From assembly GCA_030615145.1 (NCBI GenBank), contig JAUWZT010000001.1:1-36839 (forward strand): DNA of 36,839 nucleotides. The letters are read 5' to 3'. This document shows positions 13,771-18,965 of this stretch, one piece after another. The stretch comes from Promethearchaeota archaeon. GTDB lineage: Archaea; Asgardarchaeota; Lokiarchaeia; Sigyniarchaeales; SOKP01. The notes beneath the pieces are model-generated. The model was given only the letters and a program-made list of their open reading frames with translations, ran no database searches and was not told the DNA's origin. The translations under genes and the position numbers were made by a program. Position 1 is the stretch's first letter, and each line of letters starts with the position of its first letter.

Positions 13771-14289
13771 CTATTCTTTTAAAATCAAATACTCTTTTCG
13801 AGCGTTAGCATACTCTTCTCCACTTATCTTTCCATCTAAGAATTCTTTTTCTCTTTCTTGCATAACTTTTCTTTTCTCAGCTAATCTCTTTCTTCTTTCT
13901 GCTTTAGCAAAACTTTCCAAAATTGAGTTACTAAGTTTTCTTATTTCCTTGTTATCCTTTTTTACTAATTTCTCTACATATGGCTTTATTGGTTTAACCA
14001 AATCAATTTTCTTTTTAGCTAATTCATCAATTCTAACGAGTGCTTTATTTGTTTCTTCAAAATTATCACCATCAAGAACTTTAATTAGCCCTGGAAGAGC
14101 AACATCTTTAAGAACTTCGTCAAGATATTGCTCAATTTCTTTCTTTAATTTTGAACCTTCGTAAGTCTTTAATTGATTATTACGTATGTACTCGATAAAA
14201 ATAAGAGGTAATTCTATTGGCCACTCCTTCATTTTTTCTTTGTCTATTAGTTGTACTATCCCACCATCTTTTTTGTTAAAAATCTTCAT
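13771..14289 (-). CDS. Hypothetical 172-aa protein, HEAT-like repeat plus K/R/E helix plus SHOCT-like C-terminus; translationally coupled to top6A
   Basis: Its ATG overlaps the top6A TAA by 1 nt (TAATG). LPGLIKVLDGDNFEETNKALVRIDELAKKK resembles a HEAT/PBS-type repeat. The C-terminal EFLDGKISGEEYANARKEYL resembles a SHOCT motif. Confidence 0.7.
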   Translation of the reverse strand: MKIFNKKDGGIVQLIDKEKMKEWPIELPLIFIEYIRNNQLKTYEGSKLKKEIEQYLDEVLKDVALPGLIKVLDGDNFEETNKALVRIDELAKKKIDLVKPIKPYVEKLVKKDNKEIRKLSNSILESFAKAERRKRLAEKRKVMQEREKEFLDGKISGEEYANARKEYLILKE

Positions 14290-15482
14290 TATATCCAGTC
14301 TCCTGTAGATAATTTTTCAGGTATGTATTGATCGGTCAAGAATTCAAATCCAAATGCTGAAAGTGCTTGAATTTCTGCTTTTACCTTCAATTTCAAAGCT
14401 AATTTGAGATCTGTTTCCCACTCTTTATTTTTTTTAACAAAACCTTCATTTAATAACTCTTTAGTCCTTTTAATATCTGTTTGATTCATTGGAATTCTAC
14501 AATCATTTGGAATTTTATATTTTTCCAAATCTCTGGTGAGTACACCTAGGAGTTTTATATCTGGAGTGGCTAAAAATGGCGACTCGTAACTTAATCGTTT
14601 AGACCCTCGTAAATAAACCGAATGAATATAATGCCCATACGGATCACTGTCAACTAACGAAAAGACGGGTAATTTGAGTTCCTTACTAATTCTCCTTAAG
14701 AACATTCGAGTAGCGATGTCAGCAGCTCCCTTCGCTGTTAAAATTATACACGGGTATTTTCTCCAAAATCTTGCCTCTGCTAATCTTATCATCGCGGCAT
14801 CTTTTTCTAAAACCAAAATAAATTCCGCATCGGATTCAATTATTTCAATATTATCAAGCATGGGACTAATCGTCCAACCTCCGCTCCCTAATCCTTCTAA
14901 ATCAATAATATCATTTTTATCCCTAATTCGAAGACGTCCTATACATGACCCTTTGGCTGAAGCAACTATATGTGTTGAATTTCTCGTTGTATATAGCATT
15001 GTCGCGACATCTTCAATACATTTATCACTATTTTTTTGATCCCCAAACAATTGAACTGCTGAATAAAAAATTTCTCTTTTTGTAGCGTGAAGGTCTTTAA
15101 GTAGTAATTCGTTAATTTTTTCAAGCACTTTCATTAATCTAGTAATATCAGCAACGCTAGCAAGCGAATGAAATTGTTTTTCCATTATTTGTCGTCCTAA
15201 CAGCAATAAATCATTTTTTTCGTCCCAAATAATATTTGCACTCGTTCTTGAAGGTAAGCGAATGGCGGGTCTTCCTGTTTCATAAATCATTTCAATAAGG
15301 GAATCTGTTAAATTATTTATCCGATCTAAAGTTAATTCCCTATCTAATTCATCAATTTTAACTGTATGTTCGGGTAACTTGATTTGTTTTTTTTCATCTT
15401 CAAGACCCTTTTTTAAAGATTCTTGAAATAGTTTTTTTGTTGCCCTTATATCCCATTTTTCCTGTTTTATCTTACTTGACAC
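14289..15482 (-). CDS. top6A: DNA topoisomerase VI subunit A (Spo11 homolog)
   Basis: The 5Y-CAP region TKREIFYSAVQLFGDQ holds the catalytic Tyr context. The Toprim acidic cluster is FSLVDSDPYGHYI and LVLEKDA. Size is 397 aa. A GTG start is preceded by an SD-like AGTGAT, 10 nt after the top6B stop. Confidence 0.95.
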   Translation of the reverse strand: MSSKIKQEKWDIRATKKLFQESLKKGLEDEKKQIKLPEHTVKIDELDRELTLDRINNLTDSLIEMIYETGRPAIRLPSRTSANIIWDEKNDLLLLGRQIMEKQFHSLASVADITRLMKVLEKINELLLKDLHATKREIFYSAVQLFGDQKNSDKCIEDVATMLYTTRNSTHIVASAKGSCIGRLRIRDKNDIIDLEGLGSGGWTISPMLDNIEIIESDAEFILVLEKDAAMIRLAEARFWRKYPCIILTAKGAADIATRMFLRRISKELKLPVFSLVDSDPYGHYIHSVYLRGSKRLSYESPFLATPDIKLLGVLTRDLEKYKIPNDCRIPMNQTDIKRTKELLNEGFVKKNKEWETDLKLALKLKVKAEIQALSAFGFEFLTDQYIPEKLSTGDWI

Positions 15483-15492
15483 TTAAATCACT

Positions 15493-18400
15493 TCATTTTA
15501 ACTTCCAATTTTTTTTATTTTTTATAATAGAGACAACAATACTATTTTTACGCTCTAACTCCTTTAATTTTATTTGTAAGAAGCGTGCATCCATCATTTC
15601 TTTTATTTTCATTTTAAAAATTAAAGAAGTAATCGGTTGCCATTCATCAGATAGAGCGTCCAGTATTTTCTCTGTTGTAATTATCGGCAATTCGATTTGA
15701 GTAGGTTCAGGTTTAGGCGCTGGAGCACGAACTATGGGTTTCTTTATAGCGATAGGTTGAGTCGTCTCTTCACCCCCGACTAACCGCAATTGTTTTCTTT
15801 TTTCTGGTACGACTCTTGTAATGACGGGTTTGAGTTTTATAAACTCTTCTCTTTCCTTTACTAAAGGCGTTATTACTTCTGGCTTTTCTTTTGTATAAAA
15901 ATCTTGAATTATTTTAATAATTTCTGATTTTCGCACCGTTGAAGATTTAGCTATTAAGATATCCTTTTCTATGCAATATTCTTTGAGTTCATTAACGGTC
16001 CAGTTCCTTAGAGTTCTTTCTGAAAGAAATTCTTTTCTTGGTTCTGCCTTCTTGGAGATATATTCTTTCTTATCAATTGTTTTCTCCCATTCAACGACTA
16101 TTTTCTTCTGTTTTTCTTTTTCGATTTCTTCCTTTTTAATTGTTGGCTCTATCTCTTTAGAAATGCTAGGTATTTTTTTAACACCTATAGCATCTTTCAT
16201 TAAAGTTTCTAATTCCGTTTCTGAAATTTTTTCTTTATATTTTCCATCACTCTGCATAGCGATGTTATAGAGGCTTTGGACGAATATTGGAATGTATCTT
16301 TCAATTAAACCAGCTCTTTTTTCGATTTTTCGAATATTCGCTCTTCTATTAAGATATATTCTCAACCTTCTTCCAATAGCTTCGAGACAATATTTAATTT
16401 CTTTTAGAAGTTCTTCGTCGTCAGCCAAAGCATTTTTACTCTGACTCTTAAACATCAAATGAACATAAGGACCAGAAATATTTATTAATAACTTTATTGG
16501 GCCTTTAGGTAAATTATTATCATATGTTTCTAATTTATAATTCTTCCAATTAACTGATTGAACGGCTTTCGTAATTGCACAATCCGCAGAATCTCTTAAT
16601 TTTGGCGTTCTATTAATAAATCTTGATAGAACATCTCTAGAACGCTTAGGTGTATCAAGTTTTTTAGGATCATTACAATAAGCCAAAACAGCTTCCACAG
16701 CATATGCTAAGCCCTTACCGCTTGTTGGAGCTCTTGTTTCTGCAGAAATAAAATCGTCGTCCTTAGTGTAACTTTCCATAAAATATTCAAATATTTCTTG
16801 ATATGAATCTTTTTCGACTTCTTCAGATGATATAAAATTTTTTTGGATTGTTTGTCTAAATTTTTCCGGTTCGACAGAGCGATCTTTAATATCAATACTA
16901 GCTAATATCTTTGAGTTAAAAATTTTAACCTCTTCGGAATTTACAACAATTTTTTCTAAAGATTCGTCCTTTCCGGAGGATAAATTTTTGGCATTCTTTT
17001 TTATTATTTCATCCCGCATTCCCTCAATTGAATCTTTTATGTCATCTATGGGATCATCAAAATCGTCAATATTTGTAGATATTTTTAACCCAATTTCTTT
17101 TATTAATGTATTTTCTAATACAACATCACCTACAGGGATTGCTGTGTCTGTTGGGGGCGCCATATATTTGACTGATTTGAATGCATGAAATAGAGAATTG
17201 AATTGCACATTAGTTAACTCAGAGGGTTTAATTTTTGAAATTTGAACTTCTTTTACTAAATCTTCAAATTCACTTCTATTTTTTAATTTTTTAACTTCTA
17301 CCAACCCTATAGAAGTATTGAAAATAGTATTTAAACCATTTTTTATTTTTTCTTTATTTTGTGAATTGTTCTCTATTTGTTTTAATAAGTTATTAATCTC
17401 TTTTTCGATTTTTTTTATATCTTTTTTCGTTTCAGATTTATCAATACGATGTCTATGTTTTTTTATTTCTCTATATATTTTTTCTAAATCTTTTTCATAT
17501 TGGTTATATTTTTTCATAAGTTCCCAATATTTAGCCTTCAACTCTTCAGAATCAACTTGATAAATGATTAATTTATCTCTTGGTTTCGTAGATCGCCCAA
17601 ATATTCTCTTTTCAAATTTAAGGAAATTAATAGTATCAGTATTTTTCTTTAATTTGTTTACAAATCCATTATTAAGAATTAATAAAGATAAAATATCTTG
17701 TAAATTCCTTTCTGCGATCTTCAGAATTTCTTTAGCTAATTTGGAACTAATTCTTACAAAACTATCTTGTAAAAAAGCTGATATCGTGAGTTTTTCTGAT
17801 TTTATTAAAAGATCTTGTAAATCACCAATATTAGTAGATAAAGGGTGTGGTTTTGCATATTTTGGCTGTTTAGGAAAACTTGAAACTACCCTTCTATAAA
17901 TCCATTCTTCACCATAAGGATCAATAAAAATAATAGTTACATGCGGATTCATTAAAGCAGTTTCTCTAATAAATGTATCCACATAACCTCTAACATATTT
18001 CACGTTTAAATAATTCAACTTAATATATGTCCCGTGTAAGAATGGGCTGTCAACCTCCGTTGGGCGCACTAAATATCGTTTTTCATTTTTTGAAGTTGTA
18101 AAAAATTCTGACGCGGTAGCATAAATAGTATCTTTAGACTTTGAAACTGCAACAACTGGTTTGCCAGTCGTGTTTTGGGCGTCACTAAACGCACTTGGAG
18201 CGCCAAATCCTTGGCTTCCACGAGTTTGCTTTAATTCTAGACTTTTTGAAGAAGCTAGATATTTTCCAAACTTACCTAGATCTCTTCTGGTCATTCCAAT
18301 ACCATTATCAAACATTTCAAAAGTGTAACTCATGATATTTTTTTGCGATAATTCAGAAGTTAAAAAGGCGGCGGCTTCAGATTCGCGGAGTCGGATTATT

Positions 18401-18909
18401 ACAATTGGTTCGATATCAATGATTGGTTCTACAGGTTTGATGATTTCATTCATGTCATCAATAATCCTTTTTACTTCTTCCTCAACCTCTAATTCCTCTT
18501 TGTCGATAATTTCTCCGGATTCTTCTTCTTTATCTCTATCAACATCTACAAAATCTTCAGCATCAGAAGCTATTGTAGGAATTATACCAACTTCTTGCAT
18601 CAATGCAAATTTAGCTGCGTTATTTAATGGCCGTTCCACCTCATCCTTTTTTGCTTCTTGAAGGATAGATAAATTTTCTAAAGATAATTCTTGATCAAGA
18701 GAGAATTGGATTTTTGAATCTTTATCTATTATTTCATTCCATTGGAAATCTTCAATAGCATCTAAACTGTTGTCTAAAAATTCTGAAATGTATTGCATAT
18801 GTTTATAATAACCCATTGAGAAGCCTACAAGTTGTCCTCTCTTTCTCATAAACCCTGCAATTGTGCCTTGCTTTATTCTACCTTCATCCTCAGAGGAAAT
18901 TTGAATCAC
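15493..18909 (-). CDS. top6B: DNA topoisomerase VI subunit B, atypically long (1138 aa)
   Basis: GHKL N-box SEFLDNSLDA (aa 42-51), G1 FDNGIGM (199-205), G2 KQTRGSQGFG. KPHP and the H2TH are at TISAFLQDSFVRISSKLAKEIL. The transducer has LSRFINRTPKL, WKNYKL and FKSQSKNALA (switch Lys). Large extra segments lie between these blocks, and about 250 aa follow them. The start is GTG. Confidence 0.93.
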   Translation of the reverse strand: MIQISSEDEGRIKQGTIAGFMRKRGQLVGFSMGYYKHMQYISEFLDNSLDAIEDFQWNEIIDKDSKIQFSLDQELSLENLSILQEAKKDEVERPLNNAAKFALMQEVGIIPTIASDAEDFVDVDRDKEEESGEIIDKEELEVEEEVKRIIDDMNEIIKPVEPIIDIEPIVIIRLRESEAAAFLTSELSQKNIMSYTFEMFDNGIGMTRRDLGKFGKYLASSKSLELKQTRGSQGFGAPSAFSDAQNTTGKPVVAVSKSKDTIYATASEFFTTSKNEKRYLVRPTEVDSPFLHGTYIKLNYLNVKYVRGYVDTFIRETALMNPHVTIIFIDPYGEEWIYRRVVSSFPKQPKYAKPHPLSTNIGDLQDLLIKSEKLTISAFLQDSFVRISSKLAKEILKIAERNLQDILSLLILNNGFVNKLKKNTDTINFLKFEKRIFGRSTKPRDKLIIYQVDSEELKAKYWELMKKYNQYEKDLEKIYREIKKHRHRIDKSETKKDIKKIEKEINNLLKQIENNSQNKEKIKNGLNTIFNTSIGLVEVKKLKNRSEFEDLVKEVQISKIKPSELTNVQFNSLFHAFKSVKYMAPPTDTAIPVGDVVLENTLIKEIGLKISTNIDDFDDPIDDIKDSIEGMRDEIIKKNAKNLSSGKDESLEKIVVNSEEVKIFNSKILASIDIKDRSVEPEKFRQTIQKNFISSEEVEKDSYQEIFEYFMESYTKDDDFISAETRAPTSGKGLAYAVEAVLAYCNDPKKLDTPKRSRDVLSRFINRTPKLRDSADCAITKAVQSVNWKNYKLETYDNNLPKGPIKLLINISGPYVHLMFKSQSKNALADDEELLKEIKYCLEAIGRRLRIYLNRRANIRKIEKRAGLIERYIPIFVQSLYNIAMQSDGKYKEKISETELETLMKDAIGVKKIPSISKEIEPTIKKEEIEKEKQKKIVVEWEKTIDKKEYISKKAEPRKEFLSERTLRNWTVNELKEYCIEKDILIAKSSTVRKSEIIKIIQDFYTKEKPEVITPLVKEREEFIKLKPVITRVVPEKRKQLRLVGGEETTQPIAIKKPIVRAPAPKPEPTQIELPIITTEKILDALSDEWQPITSLIFKMKIKEMMDARFLQIKLKELERKNSIVVSIIKNKKNWKLK

Positions 18910-18943: not shown

Positions 18944-18965
18944 ATCTACATATTTATATGTAGAT
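18944..18965. promoter_or_regulatory. Perfect 10-bp inverted repeat (ATCTACATAT-tt-ATATGTAGAT) in the top6B promoter region
   Basis: Read directly from the sequence: arms 18944-18953 and 18956-18965. The repeat lies 35-56 nt upstream of the top6B GTG. It overlaps TATA-like TTTATAT/ATATAAAT sequence. Confidence 0.4.

Follow-up and report, generated by a model that had tools for sequence, protein, structure and literature searches.

A 36,839-nucleotide (nt) stretch of contig JAUWZT010000001.1 (assembly GCA_030615145.1), called the window below, encodes on its minus strand an enlarged B subunit (Top6B) of topoisomerase VI (Topo VI). Judged from its sequence, the open reading frame (ORF) at 15493-18909 probably specifies the functional ATPase subunit, and the sole Top6B, of a Lokiarchaeia (Asgard) genome, and is co-transcribed with top6A. 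Three internal inserts and a long C-terminal tail surround an intact catalytic core, and we consider it likely that these lineage-specific modules enlarge the surface with which the enzyme contacts DNA and tether it to DNA or chromatin. The enzyme itself is ordinary and essential; its form is unusual, shared across the lineage, and partly described. The two subunit genes are the following.

15493-18909, minus strand: top6B, 1138 amino acids (aa), GTG start, stop codon within the coordinates
14289-15482, minus strand: top6A, 397 aa, 10 nt 3′ of top6B; Pfam TOP6A-Spo11_Toprim (197 bits) and TP6A_N (64 bits)

Results

An enlarged Top6B retains a complete catalytic core

The initial annotation had called this protein a Topo VI B subunit of about twice the canonical length. 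Indeed, over its 1138 aa it matches the NCBIfam equivalog NF003218 (PRK04184) with 307 bits against a cutoff of 274, and it is catalytically complete. It scores 294 bits with TIGR01052, below that model's cutoff of 380.7 because of the inserts, and the Pfam family Topo-VIb_trans (PF09239) covers residues 717 to 864 with 93 bits against a cutoff of 24. An ATG that overlaps the GTG start is out of frame and meets a TGA at once. No second Top6B was found in the host genome, a metagenome-assembled genome (MAG) of moderate quality (2.9 Mb in 236 contigs, 85% complete, 6.4% contamination), so that this copy is the only one there.

A homology search returned 549 proteins, the best 120 of which were inspected; 116 of these are near full length and 56 to 94% identical, and the conservation values given below refer to these 116 orthologues. 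We mapped the blocks of the protein with phmmer against M. mazei 2q2e_B (621 aa) and S. shibatae 2zbk_B (530 aa). The resulting boundaries, all on the minus strand, are listed from the N terminus to the C terminus.

18748-18909, minus strand: N-terminal strap and N-box helix, residues 1-54, with E43 and N47; aligns to M. mazei 12-55
18403-18747, minus strand: insert 1, residues ~55-169, helical and acidic (net charge −22); follows the N-box helix and precedes the first GHKL strand
17848-18402, minus strand: GHKL core, with the G1 motif D201xGxG (D201-G203-G205) and the G2 motif GSQGFG (231-236); conservation 0.88
17695-17847, minus strand: first part of the H2TH domain, residues 355-405; R386 is equivalent to the M. 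mazei DNA contact K268
17254-17694, minus strand: insert 2, residues 406-552, basic (+13), K/E-rich, inside the H2TH domain
17089-17253, minus strand: second part of the H2TH domain, residues 553-607; K581 is equivalent to M. mazei K308
16756-17088, minus strand: insert 3, residues 608-718, acidic (−11), helical, at the H2TH/transducer junction
16270-16755, minus strand: transducer, residues 719-880, with WKxY at 788-791 (W788-K789-N790-Y791) and the switch lysine K825
15892-16029, minus strand: HeH (SAP/Rho_N-like) motif, residues ~961-1006, modeled helices 972-981 and 994-1006
15703-15891, minus strand: P/K-rich linker, residues 1007-1069, predicted local distance difference test (pLDDT) score below 40
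15496-15702, minus strand: C-terminal winged helix (wH), residues 1070-1138 (the last 69)

Residues 11-54, 197-399, 560-605, and 718-879 align to M. mazei 12-55, 76-281, 287-332, and 335-489, respectively, which leaves about 115, 147, and 111 additional residues for inserts 1, 2, and 3, respectively, and the three inserts and the tail lie within a few residues of where the initial annotation had placed them. Its statement that all catalytic blocks are present and collinear also stands; its numbering of the N-box residues (E42 and N46) is off by one, the true N-box being E43/N47. The Bergerat/GHKL motifs (N-box Glu/Asn, G1, and G2) align to both reference proteins and are invariant or nearly so among the orthologues, with E43, D46, N47, and D50 of the N-box, the transducer WKxY, and K825 all invariant. 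Conservation of the core is 0.85 to 0.89. The H2TH domain is a single unit in two halves: a hidden Markov model (HMM) of the unit places its positions 1-50 on residues 356-405 (E = 1.3e-11) and its positions 49-74 on residues 553-577, and HMM matches extend over residues 355-414 (E = 1e-13) and 553-599 (E = 2.6e-12).

The protein thus shares with canonical archaeal Top6B (S. shibatae and M. mazei) the collinear GHKL, H2TH, and transducer domains, WKxY, the switch lysine, and adjacency to top6A. It differs in having about 600 more residues, in carrying an HeH and wH tail where M. mazei has an Ig-like C-terminal domain (CTD), and in having a core that belongs to a divergent Asgard clade, "type 1" (FMRKRTQLVGF, TRGSQGFG, and NRTPKLRD).

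The architecture is shared by independent assemblies

The near-full-length orthologue clusters measure 1039 to 1214 aa, share the same architecture, and come from NCBI, ENA, JGI, and Logan assemblies. Their named sources are labeled Lokiarchaeota or Promethearchaeota MAGs, and many of the proteins are annotated as "hypothetical protein." These orthologues bear directly on an artifactual origin of the extra length, by assembly chimera, a fused ORF, or inteins. The sole grounds for suspicion are the GTG start and the moderate quality of the MAG. Against them, the same architecture recurs in the 116 clusters, which include closed or long contigs; the inserts are not excisable units, and insert 2 occurs only within Top6B. 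The agreement over many independent assemblies therefore excludes a local misassembly or chimera. No Hint, intein, or endonuclease family was found by Pfam anywhere in the protein at E values up to 1, which bears out the earlier statement that intein signatures are lacking, and the inserts are conserved along with the rest of the protein. We give an artifact of any of these kinds practically no credence.

Insert 2 splits the DNA-arm-binding H2TH domain

In cryo-electron microscopy structures of the M. mazei enzyme, the H2TH residues R263, K268, and K308, together with the WKxY region, hold the bent arms of the G segment and are required for activity (PMC13040014). The phmmer mapping equates K268 with the invariant R386 and K308 with K581, and insert 2 lies between them.

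In the AlphaFold2 (AF2) model, insert 2 forms four short strands (409-452) and an antiparallel helical hairpin (455-491 and 495-531), followed by the last H2TH helices. Residues 370-580, the H2TH helices plus insert 2, are the best-modeled part of the protein (pLDDT 76 to 87), the rest of the model being poor. These long paired helices agree with the coiled-coil insert that had been noted after the H2TH domain. Some residues of insert 2 are invariant, its length is fixed (148 or 149 aa), and its conservation is 0.69.

When 1.84 billion representative proteins were searched with an insert 2 profile, 20 matched, 19 of which fit Top6B: 14 carry Top6B motifs at the matching positions, and five are fragments of 163 to 247 aa, too short to be checked. 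The twentieth is an unrelated repetitive protein (E ~ 1e-3). Since the profile otherwise matches only Top6B, the module is, among these proteins, unique to this enzyme lineage. Against PDB sequences, the same profile gave just compositional matches to K/E-rich helices (such as those of myosin VI and GCN4).

The same site is expanded differently in related proteins. The H2TH segment between the GHKL domain and the transducer measures 80 to 84 aa in short type-1 proteins and 387 to 392 aa in two other Lokiarchaeia families (f29 and f30) and in a MAG of another class labeled Heimdallarchaeota (f18), where five H2TH units, each about 75 aa long, follow one another in tandem. An HMM built solely from single-copy proteins detects units 1, 3, and 5 at significance, and after iteration all five reach E values of 1e-13 to 1e-25. 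The loci are the following.

L002-L005 (genomes G152, G156, G155, and G154, respectively): five-H2TH Top6B of families f29/f30
L010 (genome G025): five-H2TH Top6B of f18

These proteins belong to the same type-1 clade as the window's protein (branch support, 99/99), are expanded at the same site, and have a similar length (955 to 1279 aa). They differ in having four recognizable extra H2TH repeats and no insert 3, whereas the window's protein has a single H2TH domain broken by a module that does not resemble H2TH.

We also considered insert 2 as a degenerate pair of H2TH repeats, its 146 extra residues being about two units long. With an HMM trained on other lineages only, no significant match was obtained within residues 406-552 (E = 3.5 and 5.2). 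In the tree, the window's order, f29 plus f30, f18, and a putatively Odin-like lineage form one well-supported clade (99/99) that is a polytomy. Given the shared site and the polytomy, insert 2 may derive from an H2TH repeat array, which the hairpin may have replaced.

The C-terminal tail carries an HeH-like motif and a winged helix

The tail (residues 881-1138, about 260 aa, 15496-16269) consists of a helical stretch, a K/E-rich linker, the HeH motif, the P/K-rich linker, and the wH. It varies from 172 to 340 aa in length, and its two linkers are poorly conserved (0.52 and 0.37, respectively).

The HeH/SAP-like motif proposed in the initial annotation is modeled as a helix-extended-helix arrangement and is supported by orthologous copies, the window's own copy lying below the thresholds: the aligned motif of orthologues scores 33.1 and 29.6 bits with Rho_N (PF07498; cutoff, 24.9) and 30.6 bits with SAP (PF02037; cutoff, 23.9). 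Relatives have zero, one, or two copies, and the motif occurs only in the window's own family (f1).

The terminal winged-helix-like domain, also proposed there, is supported by a separate AF2 model (pLDDT 84.6) with the topology H-b-H-H-bb (H14-20, H28-34, H40-55, E59-64, and E67-72). Its top 50 Foldseek matches are dominated by winged helix-turn-helix (wHTH) domains (TM score, 0.59 to 0.70; Foldseek probability, about 1), and the top matches are all wHTH DNA binders, namely, Sso10a-2, YodB, NolR, MepR, Z-alpha, the histone H1 globular domain, and the KAT6A WH domain. The domain is conserved across both families of the order, f1 and its sister family f2 (E = 1e-13 to 1e-20), with a conservation of 0.81. 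It matched no Pfam family, so only a fold can be assigned to it, and a profile search of PDB sequences returned nothing useful.

Two further wH-like sequences were seen. One, a weak paralogue elsewhere in the host genome (G000:C229; E = 2.9e-7), is interrupted by a stop codon and falls outside any clear ORF, and we did not retain it. The other is an N-terminal wH-like domain, followed by a long K/P/E-rich linker, in the f30 Top6B proteins (L004:1230-4976, minus strand, and L005). It matches the HMM of the window's C-terminal wH weakly (E = 0.09 and 0.36), which makes a relocation of the domain just a possibility.

Inserts 1 and 3 are acidic

Insert 1 is 112 to 123 aa long, with a conservation of 0.72, and is modeled with low confidence. 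The N-box-to-G1 spacing that it occupies is 157 aa here, compared with 97 to 110 aa in short type-1 Asgard Top6B, about 21 to 36 aa in canonical proteins, and up to 313 aa in part of f2. Because some 60 additional residues already separate the N-box from G1 in the short type-1 proteins, insert 1 is an extension of a clade-wide insert.

Insert 3 is confined to the window's own order, where it measures 76 to 110 aa (89 to 111 aa among the 116 orthologues). Its conservation is 0.53, and it too is modeled with low confidence. The spacing from the APP motif to TRxPTS is 141 aa here versus a baseline of 31.

Type-1 Top6B across the Asgard archaea

To place the gene in its phylum, we scanned 151 genomes for the transducer domain and inspected 20 loci. 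Asgard Top6B proteins in this survey are of two kinds: canonical-like "type 2" proteins, with the signatures SPAxFF..IAGFDN (N-terminal) and RxANxxPL, and divergent "type 1" proteins, including the window's, with IKQGTIAxFMRKRTQLVGF, TRGSQGFG, and NRTPKLRD. A very long branch separates the two types in the tree. Short type-1 proteins (600 to 706 aa) are encoded by MAGs labeled Baldrarchaeia and Thorarchaeota, a putatively Odinarchaeia-like one, and others.

In a six-frame search across 81 genomes of the class, the open frames measured 978 to 1208 aa in f1, 1146 to 1220 aa in f2, and 1141 to 1285 aa in f29 and f30; type-1 enlarged Top6B was absent from family f28 in the same search. The initial annotation had raised the case that relatives commonly share the length of this protein and form a known subfamily. 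This case applies in part: relatives commonly do have such a length (1039 to 1214 aa in the family and 1141 to 1285 aa in two other families of the class), and the length is a trait of the lineage, not a peculiarity of this gene.

A likeness to the enlarged, divergent Topo VIB-like (TOPOVIBL) proteins of eukaryotes had also been suggested, and it is not supported by these data. Asgard and eukaryotic TopoVIB do share a third transducer helix and a CTD (PMC9665070), the only point in favor of such kinship. TOPOVIBL, however, lacks the H2TH domain, which is replaced by a linker, has degenerate or absent ATP-binding motifs, and partners with SPO11 (PMC9665070), whereas the H2TH domain, the GHKL fold, and all Bergerat motifs are intact here. 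A search of PDB sequences matched archaeal Top6B only and no TOPOVIBL chain; the inserts have no homologues outside Lokiarchaeial Top6B, as insert 2 showed against the 1.84 billion representatives; and the long branch lies between the window's clade and canonical-type Top6B. That the enlargement reflects kinship with TOPOVIBL is very unlikely.

Additions to Top6B are not limited to the type-1 clade. Giant Top6B open frames of 2258 to 4305 aa were seen in families f5, f14, f16, f22, f24, and f25; their first ~560 aa are a canonical-type Top6B, and the remaining 1700 to 3700 aa form a tail. Three of the loci are the following.

L020:1691-12109, minus strand (G054:C7): giant Top6B
L018 (G026:C1): giant Top6B
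L019 (G041:C6): giant Top6B

Their tails contain 9 to 16 helix-hairpin-helix (HhH) motifs, compared with about one in shuffled sequences, and match the Pfam HhH-family models RAD51D_N, HHH_5, and RNA_pol_A_CTD; no inteins were found in them. These HhH-rich tails recall the HhH array of topoisomerase V. A full-text literature search found no paper on giant HhH-tailed Top6B. Since such tails occur in other families, the appending of DNA-binding modules to Top6B recurs in the phylum, and the H2TH site and the C terminus of Asgard Top6B appear to be hot spots for the repeated addition of DNA-handling modules.

ORF172, a candidate accessory subunit

A small gene follows top6A in the same operon.

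13771-14289, minus strand: ORF172, 172 aa, overlaps the top6A stop codon; candidate accessory subunit

ORF172 lies directly 3′ of top6A in all 24 same-contig cases compared in f1 and f2. Families f28 to f30 lack it; the one match there (E = 3.7e-7, in an f30 genome) is weak and lies at an unrelated locus. Its Pfam matches are weak and HEAT-like (INTS1_R4 and PDS5). ORF172 thus has the same distribution, f1 and f2 alone, as the C-terminal wH, insert 3, and the hairpin of insert 2.

These observations bear on another function for the modules specific to the order. Insert 3 and the hairpin of insert 2, perhaps together with the wH, may serve mainly as docking platforms, either for ORF172 as a third subunit or for SMC or chromatin proteins. 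In addition to the matching distribution and the synteny, the overlap of ORF172 with the top6A stop codon and its HEAT-like matches speak for docking, as does the resemblance of the hairpin, at nonsignificant Foldseek scores, to inserted coiled-coil "towers" such as that of LSD1. On the other side, the codistribution represents a single evolutionary origin and is statistically weak, and membership in an operon can be incidental, as a pyrE-like gene belongs to the same operon. We regard docking as the main role of these inserts as possible, although clearly less probable than DNA tethering; the two are compatible, and docking is a serious, nonexclusive alternative for the order-specific inserts.

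Combining the two, Topo VI of the window's order might be a three-component enzyme in which the hairpin and insert 3 dock ORF172 and the HeH/wH tail anchors the complex on chromatin, a proposal that we put forward tentatively and with slightly less confidence than docking itself. Plant Topo VI works with the accessory subunits RHL1 and BIN4 (as summarized in PMC9665070). The likeness consists in a possible need for extra subunits, the candidate here being ORF172, which lies in conserved synteny. If the proposal is true, this archaeal enzyme would parallel plant Topo VI in its dependence on accessory subunits.

One f1 genome (G168, genus g54) has two full top6B copies (C91:4636-8043 and C29:16496-20044), each followed by a copy of ORF172 (C91:9234-9737 and C29:21253-21756, respectively). 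This arrangement suggests either a duplication of the whole operon or a mixed bin.

Genomic surroundings of the operon

On the 3′ side of ORF172, the operon continues with the pyrE-like gene, which encodes a phosphoribosyltransferase-like protein. Upstream of top6B lies a bifunctional CoaBC-type gene, separated from it by a 210-nt spacer. The promoter region, which is very AT-rich, contains a perfect palindrome (ctacatat-aa-atatgtag, 18944-18965) 35 to 56 nt 5′ of the top6B GTG.

Gyrase and enlarged Top6B

Villain et al. (2022) proposed that Top6B gained C-terminal extensions in gyrase-bearing archaea, globular ones in Asgard lineages (PMC9348778). In line with their proposal, GyrA is encoded by the host genome and by 20 of 21 relatives, and none of the 12 genomes with a short Top6B that we tested has it. 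The GyrA sequence of the host is a fragment at a contig end (G000:C66:13579-14277).

The window's protein shares with the extensions of that study a GyrA-encoding genome and a globular C-terminal domain. The study dealt with the C-terminal region only, in trimmed alignments, and does not cover the internal inserts, the HeH and wH assignments, the H2TH-site expansions, or ORF172. Of the other reports, Brinkmeier et al. described a third transducer helix and a CTD for Asgard TopoVIB (PMC9665070), and a 2025 replisome study described divergent and conserved Top6A/B copies in Asgard archaea (PMC12680538). The internal inserts, the H2TH repeats, and the HeH/wH assignment did not turn up in our full-text literature search. 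New here are thus the internal inserts, the H2TH-site expansions, the HeH/wH assignment, and the link to ORF172; only the C-terminal extension was previously reported.

Discussion

A proposed role of the modules in DNA tethering and crossing capture

The suggestion of the initial annotation that the additions serve DNA tethering or partner binding is a reasonable reading of the sequence and the models, in which the HeH motif, the wH fold, and the insert 2 helices support it. The preferred of the two, tethering, could operate as follows. The basic hairpin in the H2TH domain, or the extra H2TH copies of the sister lineages, would provide a longer surface for binding DNA arms or crossings. The HeH motif and the wH, held on flexible low-complexity tethers, may anchor the enzyme nonspecifically to DNA or chromatin. 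The acidic inserts 1 and 3 could modulate these contacts, for example, if they contact a partner or cover the basic modules within the same molecule. In a cell equipped with gyrase as well, tethering of this kind would favor the capture of crossings, and with it decatenation or unknotting.

Accessory DNA-binding or targeting modules at the C terminus of a conserved core are familiar from other type II topoisomerases (the CTDs of GyrA/ParC and of eukaryotic Topo II), and Topo V has its HhH array. The likeness lies in an appended DNA-binding module; the folds, HeH and wH here, are unrelated, and the comparison is one of analogy only.

Inserts 1 and 2 and the wH hardly vary in length, and their conservation approaches that of the core, which indicates selection on these modules. 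This bears on the possibility that the inserts are largely neutral expansions of surface loops, a low-complexity growth in an AT-rich genome. The poor conservation of insert 3 and of the two tail linkers would fit such growth, as would the variable lengths of insert 3, of the tail, and of the N-box-to-G1 segment (97 to 313 aa between families) and the low model confidence in inserts 1 and 3. By contrast, the conservation of the wH and of inserts 1 and 2 comes close to that of the core, many of their residues are invariant, and their lengths are almost constant over orthologues down to 56% identity. We consider neutral growth improbable as a general explanation.

Several observations nevertheless weigh against DNA tethering. 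The HeH copy in the window passes no Pfam threshold; it matches only Ish1, itself an HeH family, at 14.4 bits (cutoff, 26.6). The Foldseek E values of the wH, a small domain, are just 0.03 or weaker. Winged helices and helical hairpins often mediate protein-protein contacts instead of binding DNA, and the acidity of inserts 1 and 3 does not fit direct DNA binding. The full-length AF2 model, built from the 116 orthologues, has a mean pLDDT of 53, with the GHKL core below 50, so that it does not show where the inserts lie with respect to the ATP gate and to DNA; the alignment was probably too shallow (all sequences are at least 56% identical). Foldseek searches with this model gave weak matches to Top6B and, beyond these, only nonsignificant coiled coils. 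The link to gyrase is imperfect as well, as both f30 genomes and G041 (with a 2293-aa Top6B) have an enlarged Top6B without GyrA, and the association rests on few independent evolutionary events.

Implications for Topo VI in Asgard archaea

Topo VI is the main archaeal decatenase and the ancestor of the meiotic SPO11/TOPOVIBL machinery, and eukaryotes have their closest known relatives in the Asgard archaea. A conserved Top6B with additional DNA-binding-type modules and a lineage-unique domain in the H2TH region that senses DNA arms offers natural variants for the study of how type IIB enzymes recognize DNA crossings, and the enlarged forms bear on the division of work between Topo VI and gyrase. 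Many genes annotated as "hypothetical protein" in public MAGs can now be annotated as Top6B. The interest of this gene comes mainly from the innovations at the H2TH site, from the accretion of modules on Asgard Top6B, and from ORF172, which as a candidate accessory subunit of archaeal Topo VI can be put to the test.

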